Below the pieces are notes generated by a model, which was not told the origin of the DNA, made no database searches, and saw only the letters and a program-made list of their open reading frames with translations. The position numbers and the translations under genes are program-made. From Candidatus Saccharimonadota bacterium (lineage in GTDB: Bacteria; Patescibacteriota; Saccharimonadia; Saccharimonadales; Saccharimonadaceae), in the NCBI GenBank assembly GCA_009781895.1, contig WQUV01000002.1:38293-102292 (forward strand): a stretch of DNA of 64,000 bases, given 5' to 3'. Positions 571 to 8,027 of this stretch are shown here, piece by piece (position 1 is the stretch's first letter; each line of letters begins with the position of its first letter).

Positions 571-1738
571 ATTTCGCGAACTCCGCTGGGGCCTTGGACT
601 TAAATGTCTTGCGTTCGGAATTCGGCAGGGTTAGCTCAAGCTCGGAAGCGTGGAGCATGACGCGCTTGGCTTTCTTGCCGCCATAGACTTCGTCGCCAAC
701 GATCGGGTGGTTGAGGTAGGCGAGATGAACGCGAAGCTGGTGAGTGCGCCCCGTGGTGGGTTTAAGCTCAAGCAAAGAGTAGAGCTTCATCGGCGCGACT
801 TTGGTAGTTTTGACGTGGGTTTGGGCGGATTTACCGTTGGCGCTGACGAGAAAGGTGGTCGGCTTACGGAAATTACGGGCGATTGGTAGATCTAGTACGA
901 CCTCGGCTTGTTTTGGCTCGCCCTCGACGACCGCGAGGTAGGTTTTCTTGGCTTTGCGCTCGGCGAATTGTTTCTGGAGGAACTTTTCGGCGGTCGGATT
1001 CTTGGCGAGGATCATCACACCAGAGGTGCCGCGGTCGAGACGATGGACGATGCCGCGACGATTACTTGAACCAGCGCGAGGCCCTGCTATCACCTCAGAG
1101 TCAGGAGTAGCCTCGCGAGCCCAATCCATGCGGTCAATTAGCCATGAAGCAACAGTTTCTTCGTCGTTAGCCTCGCCTTTTGAGTGGGATAAGACCCCGG
1201 ATGGTTTGTCGATGACGATAACGTCGTCGTCTTCGTGAATGATGGTGAGATTAAGGGTAGATTCCTTCTCAGCGACTTTTGCGAGGTCGATTTTGATGTC
1301 GTCATCGTATTCGCGGCTAGGTTTTTCGGCTTTTTCGCCATCCACCTCAACTAGGCCGCTCTCGATCTTGAGTTTGGCGCTACCACGACTGATATTGAAA
1401 CGTTCAGCGACCAAGACGTCGAGGCGCTTACGAGGGAATGTGCGAACAAGAGCTACGTCTTTGCCGCGGTCTTCGTCGACCTTGACGAATTGGAGGCGGG
1501 CGTTTGGCGCGATCTTCTTGACTTGGTCTTTGGCGGATTTCTCGATGTCACTTGCTTGATCTTGCGAGACATCAACTGCCCAGTAAGTGACGGGAGCGCC
1601 CTTTTCGTGCTCAAACTTGAACTCGGTAATGTTGTCGACTTGGCGGAGAGCGGTAAGGTTGATGTCGTCAACGATTTGCTCAGCGAGCTCGTCAAATCGC
1701 CAGAGAAAATCAATCGCGTTCTTCTTCGTCCATTTCAT
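557..1738 (-). CDS. RluA/RluD-family pseudouridine synthase with an S4 domain and a ~100-aa N-terminal extension of unknown type
   Basis: S4-like RLDVLVAERFNISRGSAKLKIESGLVEVDG, catalytic HRLDRGTSGVMILAKN, and C-terminal THQLRVHLAYLNHPIVGD. ATGA overlap with the leuS stop. Confidence 0.8.
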   Translation of the reverse strand: MKWTKKNAIDFLWRFDELAEQIVDDINLTALRQVDNITEFKFEHEKGAPVTYWAVDVSQDQASDIEKSAKDQVKKIAPNARLQFVKVDEDRGKDVALVRTFPRKRLDVLVAERFNISRGSAKLKIESGLVEVDGEKAEKPSREYDDDIKIDLAKVAEKESTLNLTIIHEDDDVIVIDKPSGVLSHSKGEANDEETVASWLIDRMDWAREATPDSEVIAGPRAGSSNRRGIVHRLDRGTSGVMILAKNPTAEKFLQKQFAERKAKKTYLAVVEGEPKQAEVVLDLPIARNFRKPTTFLVSANGKSAQTHVKTTKVAPMKLYSLLELKPTTGRTHQLRVHLAYLNHPIVGDEVYGGKKAKRVMLHASELELTLPNSERKTFKSKAPAEFAKYVSR

Positions 1739-4641
1739 ATAACTATGTTTACCAATCTGTTTTTTGTAACCACAATCGTCTTCTTGATAGGGGTGGAGCC
1801 GATGAACTGCTTGACTCTTACATCGTTTTCTGCTATACTTTGGAGGGTTTCCTGCGTGACTTGGTCGGCAGGAACTTTTACTTTGCTCCTGACCTTGCCA
1901 TTAATCTGGATAACGACTTCGACTTCTGTGTCAACGAGGTCTTTTTCGTCGTAGGTCGGGAACTCGGCAGTGTCCAGCTGTTTACCTGTCAGCTGATGAT
2001 AGAGCTCGTGCGAGATGTGGGGCGCGAAAGAACTAAGGAGGAGACAGAAGTCGGCCATGGTTTCTTTGTCGGGGCCATGCTTCGAGAGGTCGTTAAGGCC
2101 GCCCATTAATGCGGCGACTGCGGTATTGAAGTGCATACCGTCGAGGTCGTCACGAACTTTCTTGACGGTCTTGGCGCGCACGCGCCTTAGCTCGGCAGCC
2201 CACCCTTCGGCAGGAATAGCCTTTACTGTCTCAGAATCAGACTTCTGGGCCTGCTGACATAAGTTCCAGACACGGACGAGGAAGCGGTAGGTGCCGGCGA
2301 CGCCTTCGGGGTTCCATGGGGTGGTTTGGTCGAACGGGGCGAGGAAGGCGATAGCGAGGCGAAGAGCGTCGGCGCCATAGCCGTCATTGATGACAGAAGT
2401 TGGGTTAATAACATTGCCGAGAGACTTCGACATTTTGCGGCCATCGGAGGCGAGAATGATGCCTTGACCGCGACGCGCGGCGTAGGGCTCGGGGGTCGGG
2501 ACAAGTTTGTGGTCATAGAAGAACTGATGCCAGAAGCGAGAGTAGAGCAAGTGGAGGGTGGTATGCTCCATGCCGCCGAGGTAGAGGTCGACTTCGCCCC
2601 AGTACTTGAGCTTTTTCGGATCGGCGAAGGCTTGGTCGTTATGGGCATCGAAATAGCGGAGCCAGTACCAACTAGAGCCAGCCCAGTTTGGCATGGTGTC
2701 GGTTTCGCGTTTGGCGGGCTTTTGGCATTTCGGGCATGGGACGTTTACCCAGTCAGGGACGCTCGCAAGGACACTTTCGCCAGTATCAGACGGTTCGTAG
2801 CTATCGACTTTTGGCAAGACGACAGGAAGGTCTTTGTCGGGGACTGGGACGGCACCACAATCAGCGCAATGAATGATCGGGATAGGTTCGCCCCAGTAGC
2901 GCTGACGGCTAAAGATCCAATCGCGAAGCTTGAAGCTAGTCTTACGCGAAGCTGCGCCCATAGACTCGAGCTTTGCGATGATTTTTTCGCTGGCGTCTGA
3001 TGACAGGAGGCCGTCAAATTCGCCAGAATTGATCATGGTACCACAATCGGTATGGCAAATCATCTTGCCGTCGAGCCAGTCAGTGATGATATCTAGAGGA
3101 TCATGAGGTGTGAGACTAGAGAGGTCAGAGCGAGGCGCCCAGACAGCCTCGATACCCTCGGCAGCCTCAATCTCGTCGAGTTCTGGCTGGTCGCGGTCGA
3201 GATCTTCGAGCTGGAAGTGGAGGTAGATGGTAGTGATGTCACGATTGATGTCTTTGTGTGCGGCATAGAAGCAAGAATGGCGACAGTAAGGCATTTCGCC
3301 CAAGTATTTGAGGTTTTTATAGCCAGTCTCCTCGGTGATTTCGCGGCGCGCGGCCTCCTCGGCGGTTTCGCCGTCTTCAATGCCGCCCTTTGGTAGTGTG
3401 CGCCAGCCGCGCTTGGTCCAGTTAATGGTTAGGTATTCGTCTTTCTCGGGGTGCTTGACTAGGCAGCTGACAGTCTGGCGCTTGGTGTTTTTCTTGCCAG
3501 CGCGGGGAGGGTCGACGGGATTCGCTTCTTCGGCGGCGACAACCTGGACGATAGGCAGAGAATACTTGCTGGCGAATTCGTGATCGCGCTCGTCGTGGGC
3601 GGGGACGGCCATAATCGCACCCTCGCCATAAGTCGCAAGGACGTAGTCGGCGATCCAGATTGGCATTTTATCGCCAGAAATGGGATTCGTTGCGTAAGCG
3701 CCAGTGAAGACGCCGGTTTTGTTTTTCTCTTCGGCACGGGCGATTTCGGATTTGGCGGCGACCATTTTCTTGTATGAATTGACTTCTGGCTTGGCGTCTT
3801 TGGTGGTGATCCGGTCTACAAGTGGGTGCTCTGGGGCCAAGACAAGGAACGAAGCGCCACAAATAGTGTCAGGGCGGGTGGTGAAGACTTTAATCTTATG
3901 TGTCGCCTCGCCAGATGTCTCAGATTCAGCTGGCGCGACTACAAACGAGATCTCAGCACCTTCACTTCGACCGATCCAATTTACCTGCTGGTCAGCGATG
4001 CGACTTGGGTAGTCGACATTTTCGAGACCTTCAATAAGGCGATCGGCATACTTTGTGATGCGGAGCATCCACTGCTTTAATTTCTTTTTCTCGACTAAAG
4101 TCTCGCAGCGTTCGTGGCGGCCACTAGAGAGGACTTCTTCGTTGGCGAGGCCGGTTTTGCAGCGCGGACACCAGTTGATAGAGGATTCTTCTTGATAGGC
4201 CATGTCATGCTTGTAGAATTGAAGGAAGAGCCACTGAGTCCACTTGTAATAGCCGGGGTCGGTAGTGTTGATGACGCGAGTCCAGTCGAAAGAGTAGCCA
4301 AGCGACTTGAACTGGTCGGTGAAAGTCGCTACATTGCGCTCGGTGGCCTCCTGTGGGGTGATATTGTTTTTGATGGCGTAGTTCTCGGTAGGTAGACCGA
4401 AGGCATCGAAGCCCATAGGGTACATGACGTTGTAGCCTTGAAGGCGCTTATAGCGCGCGATAATGTCGCCATAGGTGTATTCGCGGGTATGACCAAGGTG
4501 AAGACCATCGCCACTAGGATACGGGAACTCGGTGAGCATGACGAACTTCGGTTTCTTACCAAAATCGAGGGCGAGGTAGGGGTTCTTTGACCAATACTGT
4601 TGCCACTTCTGCTCTACCGCTCCCGGATCATATTTTTCCAT
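1735..4641 (-). CDS. leuS: Leucyl-tRNA synthetase (968 aa) carrying an internal Nudix-domain insertion
   Basis: Landmarks: MEKYDPGAVEQKWQQYW, HLGH, CP1 TRPDT, AVPAHDERDHEFA, NSGEFDG, KMSKS. The start is set at ATG 4641 (not 4755) because TATAGT lies 6 nt upstream and the LeuS N-terminus is canonical from there. Confidence 0.93.
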   Translation of the reverse strand: MEKYDPGAVEQKWQQYWSKNPYLALDFGKKPKFVMLTEFPYPSGDGLHLGHTREYTYGDIIARYKRLQGYNVMYPMGFDAFGLPTENYAIKNNITPQEATERNVATFTDQFKSLGYSFDWTRVINTTDPGYYKWTQWLFLQFYKHDMAYQEESSINWCPRCKTGLANEEVLSSGRHERCETLVEKKKLKQWMLRITKYADRLIEGLENVDYPSRIADQQVNWIGRSEGAEISFVVAPAESETSGEATHKIKVFTTRPDTICGASFLVLAPEHPLVDRITTKDAKPEVNSYKKMVAAKSEIARAEEKNKTGVFTGAYATNPISGDKMPIWIADYVLATYGEGAIMAVPAHDERDHEFASKYSLPIVQVVAAEEANPVDPPRAGKKNTKRQTVSCLVKHPEKDEYLTINWTKRGWRTLPKGGIEDGETAEEAARREITEETGYKNLKYLGEMPYCRHSCFYAAHKDINRDITTIYLHFQLEDLDRDQPELDEIEAAEGIEAVWAPRSDLSSLTPHDPLDIITDWLDGKMICHTDCGTMINSGEFDGLLSSDASEKIIAKLESMGAASRKTSFKLRDWIFSRQRYWGEPIPIIHCADCGAVPVPDKDLPVVLPKVDSYEPSDTGESVLASVPDWVNVPCPKCQKPAKRETDTMPNWAGSSWYWLRYFDAHNDQAFADPKKLKYWGEVDLYLGGMEHTTLHLLYSRFWHQFFYDHKLVPTPEPYAARRGQGIILASDGRKMSKSLGNVINPTSVINDGYGADALRLAIAFLAPFDQTTPWNPEGVAGTYRFLVRVWNLCQQAQKSDSETVKAIPAEGWAAELRRVRAKTVKKVRDDLDGMHFNTAVAALMGGLNDLSKHGPDKETMADFCLLLSSFAPHISHELYHQLTGKQLDTAEFPTYDEKDLVDTEVEVVIQINGKVRSKVKVPADQVTQETLQSIAENDVRVKQFIGSTPIKKTIVVTKNRLVNIVI

Positions 4642-4647
4642 GCTTAT

Positions 4648-4653
4648 ACTATA
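4648..4653 (-). promoter_or_regulatory. -10 element (TGGTATAGT) 6 nt upstream of the leuS ATG; leaderless architecture
   Basis: Minus strand reads tggTATAGTataagcATG. Confidence 0.55.
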
Positions 4654-4846
4654 CCATAAATAACGACTAAAATGAAAAGTCCCGCCAGGATAATTGATCT
4701 GGTGAGGTTTAAGAATTAATGGTTCACCTGCTTGTCGAACGCGGTGAGAACGCAATCGGCAGTTCGACGAAGTTCGTCAAGAGTATAGACAAGAGTATAG
4801 CAAATATGGTATAATAGCACTATAAACTAGCTTGATGGGAGAAATC

Positions 4847-6935: not shown

Positions 6936-7607
6936 ATGCCATTTGTAAAACCGCGTACGATCGACATTAGTCGCAACCATCAAGTAATATGCTGGGCAAA
7001 CCTCAAAGAAGCCCGCGCTATGGGTGAAGACAGAGCTCTCGTCATTATGGCGAGTGGGCTCGGCAAAACTATCACCGCGATTGTGGACGCTAAAGAGTTC
7101 ATCGCAGAGCACGGAGGAAGAGTGTTAGTCCTGTGCCACCGTAACGACATTCTCGAGCAACTGAACGGAGAATTCCAAGCAATACTTGGTAATGAGTATA
7201 GCTACGGTCTCTACAACGGCAACGAGAAAAGAAACACAGTCTGCGGCAATGAGGATGGCGAAAAGGTAGACTTTCTGTTTGCCAGCTTCCAAACTATGGC
7301 CGACGATATGCGACGGAAAGAGTTTGCAAGAGATGAATTCACTTATATAATTGTGGATGAGGCTCATCATGCTCCCGCCCGCACATTCTACCAGACCTTA
7401 AAATACTTCACGCCCAAGTTCCTATTAGGGTTAACAGCTACACCTGACCGCAAGGACAAGGCGAATCTGAACGCTATTTTCGGCAGAACTGTTTATGAAA
7501 AACGGTTTGCTGAAGCAATAGCAGAGAGACTACTGGTACGCCCGATACATATATTAAATAACTATTTCCTAAATCAATTTTTTTGGCTGGCGAATATGAT
7601 CCTCTAG
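6936..7607 (+). pseudogene. SF2 (DEAD/DEAH, type III restriction Res-like) helicase, truncated after motif III
   Basis: Motif I ASGLGKT, motif II VDEAHH, motif III LTATPDRKD. The homologous sequence stops near 7541 and reads into low-GC DNA. The C-terminal RecA domain is absent. Confidence 0.7.
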
Positions 7608-7644
7608 TTTTATAATCGTCTAAAAATATATTTTCAATTTTCAT
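7474..7644 (-). pseudogene. N-terminal fragment of a RidA/YjgF-like gene, fused at about 7541 to antisense helicase sequence
   Basis: GGGAGG SD. MKIENIFLDDYKTRGSYSPAKKIDLGNSYLIYVSG resembles a RidA N-terminus, then runs into unrelated sequence. Below the track size cutoff. Confidence 0.35.
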
Positions 7645-7658
7645 TTAATTGCCTCCCA

Positions 7659-8027
7659 CTAAACATATTTTGTATCTTGGTTTCTATCAATAATATTATG
7701 AGCGTGTTTCATTTCATCGGGAGTATTAATATATATTATTTTATATTTGCCCGAGGTTAAACCATTAACGTAGTCGTGGCCTACCTCGAGAATATGCACT
7801 AACCCCCAATACAACCATTTTCCGTTTATATTTTCTACCAAAAAGTTTCTAACTGGCGGTCTATGATAGATCCTTATATTTGGCTTGTTTTTAAACTCGA
7901 AAATTATGTTTTCAAAATCTTTAGCCAAATATGGTTTTACAATATGATTTTCGTATTCCAATTCTTTTGGAAAACCTTGCTCTCTTGTTATTTGTAAAGT
8001 GTCGTTAGTTTCTATAAATGATCCCAT
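7659..8027 (-). CDS. Hypothetical protein, 122 aa, in the low-GC patch
   Basis: AAGGAGGATATAAAAAA-ATG. Intact ORF, family not recognised. Confidence 0.5.
   Translation of the reverse strand: MGSFIETNDTLQITREQGFPKELEYENHIVKPYLAKDFENIIFEFKNKPNIRIYHRPPVRNFLVENINGKWLYWGLVHILEVGHDYVNGLTSGKYKIIYINTPDEMKHAHNIIDRNQDTKYV

Follow-up and report, generated by a model that had tools for sequence, protein, structure and literature searches.

Why should a leucyl-tRNA synthetase (LeuRS) carry a Nudix hydrolase domain within its own editing domain? The question is raised by the leuS gene found in a stretch of 64,000 nucleotides from a Candidatus Saccharimonadota bacterium (contig WQUV01000002.1, positions 38,293–102,292; this whole stretch is called the window in what follows). 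In the protein encoded by this gene a complete Nudix domain of about 155 residues is grafted on the tip of a surface β-hairpin in the connective polypeptide 1 (CP1) editing domain, and we have very little doubt that this domain is real, folded and, as far as predictions go, catalytically competent. Comparison with related proteins reveals that it is part of a distinct Nudix family whose members reside for the most part within aminoacyl-tRNA synthetases, and that the insert is a lineage-wide trait of Patescibacteria and not peculiar to the source genome. The function that we tentatively favour for it would be the hydrolysis of dinucleoside polyphosphates made by the synthetase itself.

The Pfam NUDIX family (PF00293) recognises the domain with 57.2 bits in the full-length protein (E = 2.3e-15; gathering cut-off 21.1) and with 61.7 bits (E = 9e-17) in the excised insert. 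Alignment to LeuRS of known structure places the insert between residues 368 and 378 of the Thermus thermophilus enzyme, PIVQVVAAEEANP ending before it and TDCGTMINSGEFDG resuming after it. Solved LeuRS have 7–17 residues at this position (9 in Thermus, 7 in S. pneumoniae, about 16 in Neisseria), and the spacing between the two flanking anchors SLPIVQVV (residues 361–368) and NSGEFDG (residues 538–544) amounts to 184 residues here vs. 18–34 in insert-less relatives. The Pfam editing domain PF13603 (E = 1e-60) is interrupted at the same place, residues 221–376 covering profile positions 2–147 of 185 and the remainder lying past the insert. From this alignment and from the split of PF13603 at position 147 it follows that the insert occupies the turn of a CP1 β-hairpin and not an interdomain linker. 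The original prediction, made from the DNA letters, of a complete Nudix domain in-frame within an intact LeuRS is thus borne out by the Pfam match and the uninterrupted frame. Its estimate of about 150 extra residues was close to the 155–160 counted here, whereas their assignment to a linker has to be replaced by the hairpin tip; likewise, the Nudix box described as perfect lies exactly at nucleotides 3319–3387 but its last "U" position is occupied by Tyr, which is also the consensus of the family (84 of 109 inserts). No further Nudix box occurs elsewhere in the 64-kb window.

An AlphaFold2 model of the full-length LeuRS, built with 110 homologs, has a mean predicted local distance difference test score (pLDDT) of 90.2, with values of 92–97 across the insert, a range that recurs in the model of the insert by itself. 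When modelled alone the insert reaches a pLDDT of 91.6 and displays the Nudix order of strands and helices, the helix formed by residues 427–439 spanning REITEETG, i.e. the REx2EE element of the box. Foldseek retrieves more than 500 Nudix chains at a probability of 1.0, and we predict with high confidence that the insert folds as an autonomous Nudix lobe. The template modelling (TM) scores of the full-length model against Thermus and E. coli LeuRS are 0.84–0.85 when normalised to the target and 0.76–0.77 when normalised to the query, the lower query-normalised values being consistent with the presence of an extra lobe.

The host enzyme is otherwise complete. The minus-strand open reading frame (ORF) 1735–4755 runs without interruption, and the ATG at 4641 defines a LeuRS of 968 residues whose N-terminus (MEKYDPGAVEQKWQQYW) agrees with the consensus of its homologs. 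The NCBIfam equivalog leuS_bact (TIGR00396) matches with 947.7 bits vs. a cut-off of 548.4, the match being divided into two stretches by the insert. All LeuRS landmarks named in the original prediction (HLGH, CP1, AVPAHDERDHEFA at residues 345–357, NSGEFDG and KMSKS) are at their expected places. Neither the synthetic site (HIGH, KMSKS) nor the editing site (TTRPDT, AHDERD) is damaged in this Nudix-bearing LeuRS; the conserved Asp of the AHDERD motif (D345 in E. coli) anchors the amino group of the substrate, as is established for LeuRS. Because these editing residues and the signatures of the synthetic site are invariant among the homologs (Table 1), the Nudix domain is an addition and not a substitute for a decayed editing site.

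The window represents one assembly, and an artefact, that is an assembly chimera or a frameshifted junction between a Nudix gene and leuS, was considered. The same insert is present in 109 of the 120 best LeuRS clusters of a 5.8-billion-protein collection, with 176–196 residues between the anchors, the 11 remaining clusters being insert-less (18–34 residues); where clusters bear names, these are Candidatus Saccharibacteria, Saccharimonadales or Patescibacteria. At least 253 insert loci came to light in GTDB when each species was represented by one genome, and some 74 of the 80 best are bordered by LeuRS sequence on either side of the same insertion site, the N-terminal part ending at the equivalent of window residue ~368 and the C-terminal part resuming just after the insert. 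The record titles of these loci name Saccharibacteria, Paceibacteria/Parcubacteria, Berkel-, Magasanik-, Moran-, Taylor-, Nomura- and Gracilibacteria. Some insert-bearing metagenome-assembled genomes (MAGs) are labelled Bacilli, Clostridia or Woesearchaeota, and such labels need caution. The same junctions therefore recur in hundreds of independent assemblies from different projects; in the window, the frame is uninterrupted, the guanine plus cytosine (GC) content is even over the insert borders (0.53–0.58, no composition break), LeuRS sequence continues to the left and right of the insert, and the structure is predicted with confidence. We attribute next to no probability to a chimera or frameshift, which is rejected on comparative grounds. 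The architecture is already visible in public databases, Pfam domains being precomputed on hundreds of entries. Many of the Nudix-bearing LeuRS (see clusters P0013, P0017, P0037, P0090, P0097 and P0121) carry only the NCBI name "class I tRNA ligase family protein" and insert-less relatives that of "leucine--tRNA ligase"; the insert may keep the specific LeuRS name from being assigned, and annotation pipelines at present down-grade these enzymes. As a separate observation, bacterial-type leuS genes with the Nudix insert also occur on contigs binned as archaea (L031, L039, L070 and L025, with the titles Woesearchaeota or Methanosarcinales), which reflects either lateral transfer of a leuS typical of the candidate phyla radiation (CPR) into DPANN archaea, or mis-binning.

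Table 1. Positions of the features discussed, as nucleotides of the window (aa: residues of the LeuRS)
Feature	Position	Strand	Remarks
leuS CDS	1735..4641	-	968 codons + TGA stop at 1735–1737; bacterial-type leucyl-tRNA synthetase
HIGH signature HLGH, synthetic site	4489..4500	-	aa 48–51; H48, G50, H51 invariant in 110 homologs
CP1 editing domain including insert	2932..3981	-	aa ~221–570; PF13603 match and alignment to CP1 of solved LeuRS structures
Thr-rich editing motif TTRPDT	3865..3882	-	aa 254–259; T254, R256, D258, T259 invariant in 110 homologs
Editing-site motif AHDERD	3583..3600	-	aa 348–353; D350, R352, D353 invariant in 110 homologs
Inserted segment (Nudix domain and short linkers)	3058..3534	-	aa ~370–528, about 155–160 aa; tip of CP1 β-hairpin
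Pfam NUDIX match PF00293	3103..3480	-	aa 388–513, E = 2.3e-15
Nudix box GGIEDGETAEEAARREITEETGY	3319..3387	-	aa 419–441; GX5EX7REUXEEXGU
Family-specific residues 3' of the box	3139..3270	-	F458/Y459 (3265–3270), K463 (3253–3255), N466/R467, W501 (3139–3141)
KMSKS signature	2422..2436	-	aa 736–740; invariant in 110 homologs
RluD-type pseudouridine synthase gene, 393 aa	557..1738	-	3' of leuS; operon partner, outside the fusion

Does the inserted domain still look like an enzyme? Residue conservation was counted over the 109 LeuRS inserts found among the 120 best clusters. Within the box, the first glycine is present in 109 of them, the second in 105, the first glutamate in 90 (Gln in 13), the arginine in 96, the three glutamates that complete REx2EE in 109, 109 and 108, and the final glycine in 99. 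Downstream of the box, an aromatic residue (Tyr or Phe) is found at position +17 in 103 inserts, K463 in 100, N466 in 89 and W501 in all 109. In contrast to these fixed positions, the inserts of homologous proteins share only about 24–26% identity vs. 57–70% for the LeuRS bodies, and the non-catalytic remainder of the Nudix domain evolves approximately 2–3 times faster than the LeuRS body. Quick drift combined with frozen metal-binding and catalytic residues reads, at the level of sequence, as the signature of a catalytic function that has been kept while constraint elsewhere was relaxed or shifting. It could be argued instead that the domain is a non-catalytic module, such as a nucleotide sensor, a regulatory or a purely structural element, since it diverges rapidly and since the first Glu of the box is Gln in the 13 inserts mentioned; we consider this highly improbable, because REx2EE and the glycines of the box are essentially invariant over a large divergence, which is the pattern of an active enzyme. 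Comparison of insert and body identities over 97–109 homologs gives a Spearman coefficient of 0.10, the body tree being star-like with ~70% identity everywhere. Sub-clusters of the insert have no mirror in the body, and this comparison of identities does not separate a single ancient insertion from repeated replacement.

The Nudix family defined by these inserts is not confined to the hairpin tip. A profile search of 1.84 billion representatives returned 180 clusters at E ≤ 1e-30, and the best 150 of them (clustered at 50% identity) comprise 111 LeuRS or LeuRS fragments, 30 free proteins of ~154–250 residues and 9 other architectures. LeuRS proteins contain one to three copies of the family, distributed over three sites: site A at the start of CP1 (window residues ~210–250), with single or tandem copies (P0144–P0150, P0093, P0278); site B, which is that of the window; and site C near window residues 634–644 (P0153, P0160, P0241, P0283). 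One cluster (P0219) has the Nudix domain at site A only, its editing domain being unbroken (PF13603 positions 1–185). Moreover, five independent clusters of archaeal-type prolyl-tRNA synthetase (ProRS) of 641–674 residues (P0286 and P0294–P0297; sources JGI, Logan and NCBI), with mutual identities of 61–74%, carry the same family between their anticodon-binding and C-terminal domains. These ProRS inserts score 130–174 bits on the profile of the LeuRS inserts vs. 175 for the insert of the window, and the insert-less neighbours of these clusters are named Woese- or Nanoarchaeota. Finally, stand-alone genes encoding ~280 residues in Firmicutes-like contexts consist of a reduced CP1 domain with a Nudix domain at the same hairpin (L066:2647–3510, L087:2384–3223, L088:44–970, P0226, P0246, P0258, P0235); in L066 this gene comes after a CYTH-domain gene. 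Neither the Thr-rich motif nor the editing Asp survives in their reduced CP1, but their Nudix box is preserved. The family also includes free proteins of ~160 residues, which are encoded in heterogeneous gene contexts; the single suggestive translation-linked case is found in a Saccharibacteria MAG (L059:2349–3432), where the free Nudix gene overlaps the 3' end of pth and adjoins hisS. That the family is met with at three positions of LeuRS, in ProRS and again in the CP1-Nudix proteins argues that it is functionally tied to aminoacyl-tRNA synthetases.

Such a tie could be sought in proofreading, the domain providing a pre-transfer editing route that hydrolyses misactivated aminoacyl-adenylates (norvalyl-, isoleucyl- or methionyl-AMP). 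In the window the domain lies within the editing domain, and LeuRS and ProRS, the two hosts, both need editing according to textbook knowledge. Nudix enzymes act on nucleoside-diphosphate-X compounds, but an aminoacyl-AMP, the mixed acyl-phosphate anhydride of a nucleoside monophosphate, is not one of them, so that the hydrolysis of aminoacyl-adenylates suggested in the original prediction is chemically unlikely. Furthermore, the CP1 editing residues are fully conserved and leave nothing to compensate, the stand-alone version lost its editing residues but kept the Nudix domain, and sites A and C as well as the ProRS site are outside the editing domain. An additional proofreading activity has therefore very little probability in our view.

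The reading which we place first is that the Nudix domain of LeuRS hydrolyses dinucleoside polyphosphates made by synthetases, i.e. diadenosine tetraphosphate (Ap4A) and its analogues with another nucleoside (Ap4N), in cis or locally; the clean-up of Ap4A raised in the original prediction is thus plausible, and we regard this reading as possible, short of probable. In this scheme the domain would be a working Mg2+-dependent pyrophosphohydrolase, held on the synthetase because its substrates would be products of synthetase chemistry. The likeliest substrates would be Ap4A, Ap3A and Ap4N, formed by attack of ATP or another nucleoside triphosphate (NTP) on the enzyme-bound aminoacyl-adenylate, and asymmetric cleavage would give ATP (or NTP) and AMP. 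Scarce nucleotides could thereby be recycled in ultra-small cells, and the build-up of an alarmone or of a cap precursor would be prevented. Organisms of this ultra-small (CPR) type are generally thought to be unable to make nucleotides de novo. The proposal of Ap4A and related compounds (ApnN) follows from the fact that the aminoacyl-adenylate is the chemistry common to LeuRS and ProRS. It is established that synthetases make Ap4A/ApnN from aminoacyl-adenylate and ATP/NTP, and that RppH/NudH and NUDT2 degrade these compounds (PMC7705103, PMC10148737).

Structural and sequence comparisons are compatible with such a substrate. The best TM-score obtained with Foldseek is that of an Ap4A hydrolase from Aquifex (3I7U, aq_158; TMt 0.77–0.78, root-mean-square deviation 2.6–2.9), and the top matches also include RppH, CT771 (Ap4A), Ndx1 (Ap6A) and human NUDT2. 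In a profile search of PDB sequences the lupin Ap4A hydrolase 1F3Y ranks second (3.5e-11), after 2AZW. In hydrolases of the ApnA type the adenine is reportedly stacked on by a Tyr located some 17 positions beyond the box (Dunn et al., 1999); the corresponding residue of the window insert is F458, an equivalence that is based on its position in the sequence. In addition, every one of the 109 inserts is acidic (net charge –2 to –17, median –10; pI 4.3–6.4, median 5.0), and this speaks for a small nucleotide as substrate rather than for RNA.

Several observations weigh against this reading. None of the curated NCBIfam models of Nudix subfamilies reaches its cut-off: RppH (NF001938) scores 34 bits vs. 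116, YtkD 33 vs. 154, NudE 27.5 vs. 169 and NudI (NF012016) 23.9 vs. 95, such sub-threshold matches being mostly driven by the box; the models for MutT 8-oxo-dGTPases (TIGR00586 and NF008044) give 19.4 bits vs. 97.9 and 18.7 vs. 148. The best E-values in Foldseek belong to the pyrimidine dNTPase NudI and to 2AZW, an uncharacterised Nudix protein from Enterococcus, and all Foldseek matches lie in a TM range of 0.45–0.78 with many subfamilies scoring alike. As the curated models are sub-threshold and the Foldseek scores are similar across subfamilies, the substrate class cannot be read from homology. To our knowledge, LeuRS is not among the most active producers of Ap4A in E. coli. The four nearest relatives (P0011, P0012, P0014 and P0015, 74–80% identity) show a clean in-frame deletion of the Nudix domain together with the NSGEF hairpin, and no Nudix gene is present within 10 kb on either side of an insert-less leuS locus. 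Lastly, LeuRS of sister lineages harbour unrelated guest domains (α/β-hydrolase, ASCH), as would fit a mere permissive carrier.

The deletions deserve some attention. A close relative with 74% identity (P0010) retains the Nudix insert, and the gene order is equal in an insert-bearing (L084) and an insert-less (L083:10001–12532) locus, leuS-rluD-holB-...-ruvB-recA with gltX-trmD upstream. Since close relatives deleted the domain, leucylation does not need it, and the Nudix domain is accessory and dispensable for LeuRS. As for the guests, LeuRS proteins of 1080–1183 residues possess a second guest domain at site A, a different position in CP1, which is a serine α/β-hydrolase (PF00561/PF06821) in P0045, P0050, P0096, P0105, P0118 and P0126 and an ASCH domain in P0111; in P0093 and P0144–P0150 it consists of one or two further copies of the Nudix domain. 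The CP1 domain of CPR LeuRS thus appears to be a hotspot for gaining hydrolase modules, and easy loss along with unrelated guests suggests that LeuRS is, in addition, no more than a permissive carrier. In leuS genes of other Patescibacteria (L021, L011, L013, L034, L050, L074) we noticed more large gaps separating the stretches alignable with the LeuRS of the window; the gap in L021 measures ~2 kb and lies upstream of the Nudix domain, those of several others measure 0.6–0.8 kb and lie after window residue ~595.

On these grounds the domain could be a hitch-hiking housekeeping Nudix enzyme (a pyrophosphatase acting on dNTP, 8-oxo-dGTP, ADP-ribose or NADH) which is unrelated to leucylation and uses LeuRS as a tolerant, constitutively expressed carrier in genomes prone to gene fusion. 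Apart from the clean loss in the nearest relatives, the fast evolution of the insert and the unrelated guests at another CP1 site, this is supported by the lead of NudI dNTPases among the Foldseek E-values, by the good representation of NUDT5/ADP-ribose pyrophosphatases and by phmmer, in which NUDT18 is the top match. Taken together, phmmer and the PDB profile search return a mixture without a decisive member, made up of NUDT18, Ap4A hydrolases, NudI, AvrM14, NUDT12 and ADP-ribose pyrophosphatases. On the other hand, it is one and the same narrow family that turns up at three positions in LeuRS and again in ProRS, an unrelated synthetase of class II, 111 of the best 150 clusters being LeuRS, and the stand-alone version keeps a catalytically degenerate CP1 scaffold, which is unexpected for a pure passenger. 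We hold the housekeeping explanation to be unlikely, although it comes second in our ranking.

A third explanation, an enzyme acting on RNA 5' ends, invokes an RppH-like or decapping activity that would take pyrophosphate or non-canonical caps (Np4, NAD) off RNA, possibly off tRNA or off transcripts capped by the synthetase itself, with CP1 contributing the binding of RNA. RppH and YtkD are indeed the best curated models, though below their cut-offs, and RppH is prominent in the Foldseek results. In the profile search of PDB sequences AvrM14-A and -B match over the full length (1.7e-10 and 6.7e-10), and NUDT12 is also matched; AvrM14 is an mRNA-decapping Nudix effector, and NUDT12 removes NAD caps. 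The free member that overlaps the end of pth beside hisS and the CP1 scaffold retained by the stand-alone proteins point in the same direction, as does the ability of LysRS to add Np4 caps in vitro (PMC10148737). Against this stand the acidity of all 109 inserts, a poor fit to an RNA-binding surface, and the textbook fact that tRNA 5' ends are monophosphates after RNase P; moreover, with three sites in LeuRS and another one in ProRS there is no fixed geometry with respect to the bound tRNA. On balance this explanation seems improbable to us. The order retained is thus ApnN hydrolysis, followed by the housekeeping passenger, the RNA 5'-end enzyme and, last, aminoacyl-adenylate hydrolysis and a non-catalytic role.

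The hydrolysis of synthetase-made dinucleoside polyphosphates can be extended to a more general proposal, namely that this Nudix family is a dedicated partner of synthetases, a third activity next to aminoacylation and editing, which destroys by-products in cis (Ap4A/Ap4N, possibly Np4 caps) and which has been hard-wired several times independently in episymbiotic bacteria (CPR) and archaea (DPANN). Several independent couplings are proposed because the domain is inserted at three positions of LeuRS, in ProRS and in the CP1-Nudix mini-protein; taken as a whole, the extended proposal appears doubtful to us. The formation of Ap4A by synthetases has been known since the 1960s, and there is still debate as to whether it represents noise, damage or signalling (PMC7705103, PMC10148737). 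A widespread fusion of a synthetase with a Nudix domain would point, on the evolutionary side, to a real relation between producer and degrader, and the case is made stronger by the recurrence of the fusion at different sites and in two unrelated synthetases. If the dedicated partnership were true, nature would have supplied genetic evidence that the dinucleoside polyphosphates made by synthetases are a burden or a signal worth policing at the source, and the fusion would offer a simple experimental system, one polypeptide in which point mutants can be made in either site. The matter is also relevant to the biology of CPR and DPANN, whose tiny genomes are generally thought to depend on scavenged nucleotides and in which CP1 appears to serve as a hotspot for hydrolase modules. 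If the domain is a passenger only, the locus would still exemplify an unusual lineage-wide mode of gene fusion, of modest interest.

Regarding the surroundings of leuS, the stop codon of this gene and the ATG of the downstream 393-residue gene overlap as ATGA at 1735–1738, which suggests translational coupling. In relatives, the syntenic genes downstream of leuS contain S4 and PseudoU_synth_2 Pfam domains, the order being the same with and without the insert. Scans of the 64-kb window for tRNA and Rfam families detected two ordinary tRNAs only. The GC content falls to 0.32–0.39 at ~7350–7950, compared with ~0.50 around; this patch adjoins a 223-residue ORF (6936–7607) resembling the N-terminal portion of a DEAD/helicase-type protein, with a DEAH motif and an abrupt end, and a 122-residue ORF (7659–8027) is also beside it. 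The region may be foreign or decaying DNA.

How does the LeuRS-Nudix fusion compare with known systems? The literature was searched in full text for Nudix together with LeuRS, aminoacyl-tRNA synthetase, Saccharibacteria or Patescibacteria; no publication on a synthetase-Nudix fusion turned up, and we know of no such fusion described elsewhere. With bacterial LeuRS of known structure (Thermus thermophilus, 1H3N/2BTE; E. coli, 4AQ7/4ARC) the enzyme of the window shares the order of domains, the HIGH and KMSKS signatures, the CP1 motifs and the anticodon-binding and C-terminal domains; the difference resides in the hairpin, which is a turn of 7–17 residues in the solved enzymes and bears the ~155-residue Nudix domain here. 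The insert in turn resembles the ApnA hydrolases and RppH (3I7U, 1F3Y, NUDT2, RppH/NudH, CT771) in being a single domain of ~130–160 residues with a canonical box and a putatively equivalent aromatic residue at +17, whereas it differs from them by its low identity (15–27%), by a motif of its own (F/Y-Y-x3-K-x2-N-R), by an invariant Trp and by being embedded in a synthetase; it is known from its sequence and from a model. A comparable arrangement is the IleRS with a GNAT N-acetyltransferase domain (NCBIfam NF040702), likewise a class I synthetase of the Ile/Leu/Val group with an extra, unrelated enzyme domain. The guest is a GNAT domain in that IleRS and a Nudix domain, internal to CP1, in the LeuRS of the window. 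The pairing of a synthetase as producer with a hydrolase as degrader is the logic of the mammalian LysRS-Ap4A-NUDT2 system and of bacterial ApaH, YqeK and RppH (PMC7705103, PMC10148737); these are separate proteins, the degrader being a Nudix enzyme in the case of NUDT2 and RppH, whereas in LeuRS-Nudix both activities would be united in one polypeptide, a link that we infer. The stand-alone CP1-Nudix proteins of ~280 residues recall the trans-editing factors AlaX and YbaK/ProX, in which editing-domain folds have been freed as genes of their own. Unlike these, the CP1-Nudix remnant is devoid of the Thr-rich motif and the Asp and has kept the Nudix box, and judging from these residues it is probably not a deacylase. 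There is nothing out of the ordinary about the host, a bacterial-type LeuRS, nor about the look of the guest, a single-domain Nudix protein; what is unusual is their combination and its recurrence.

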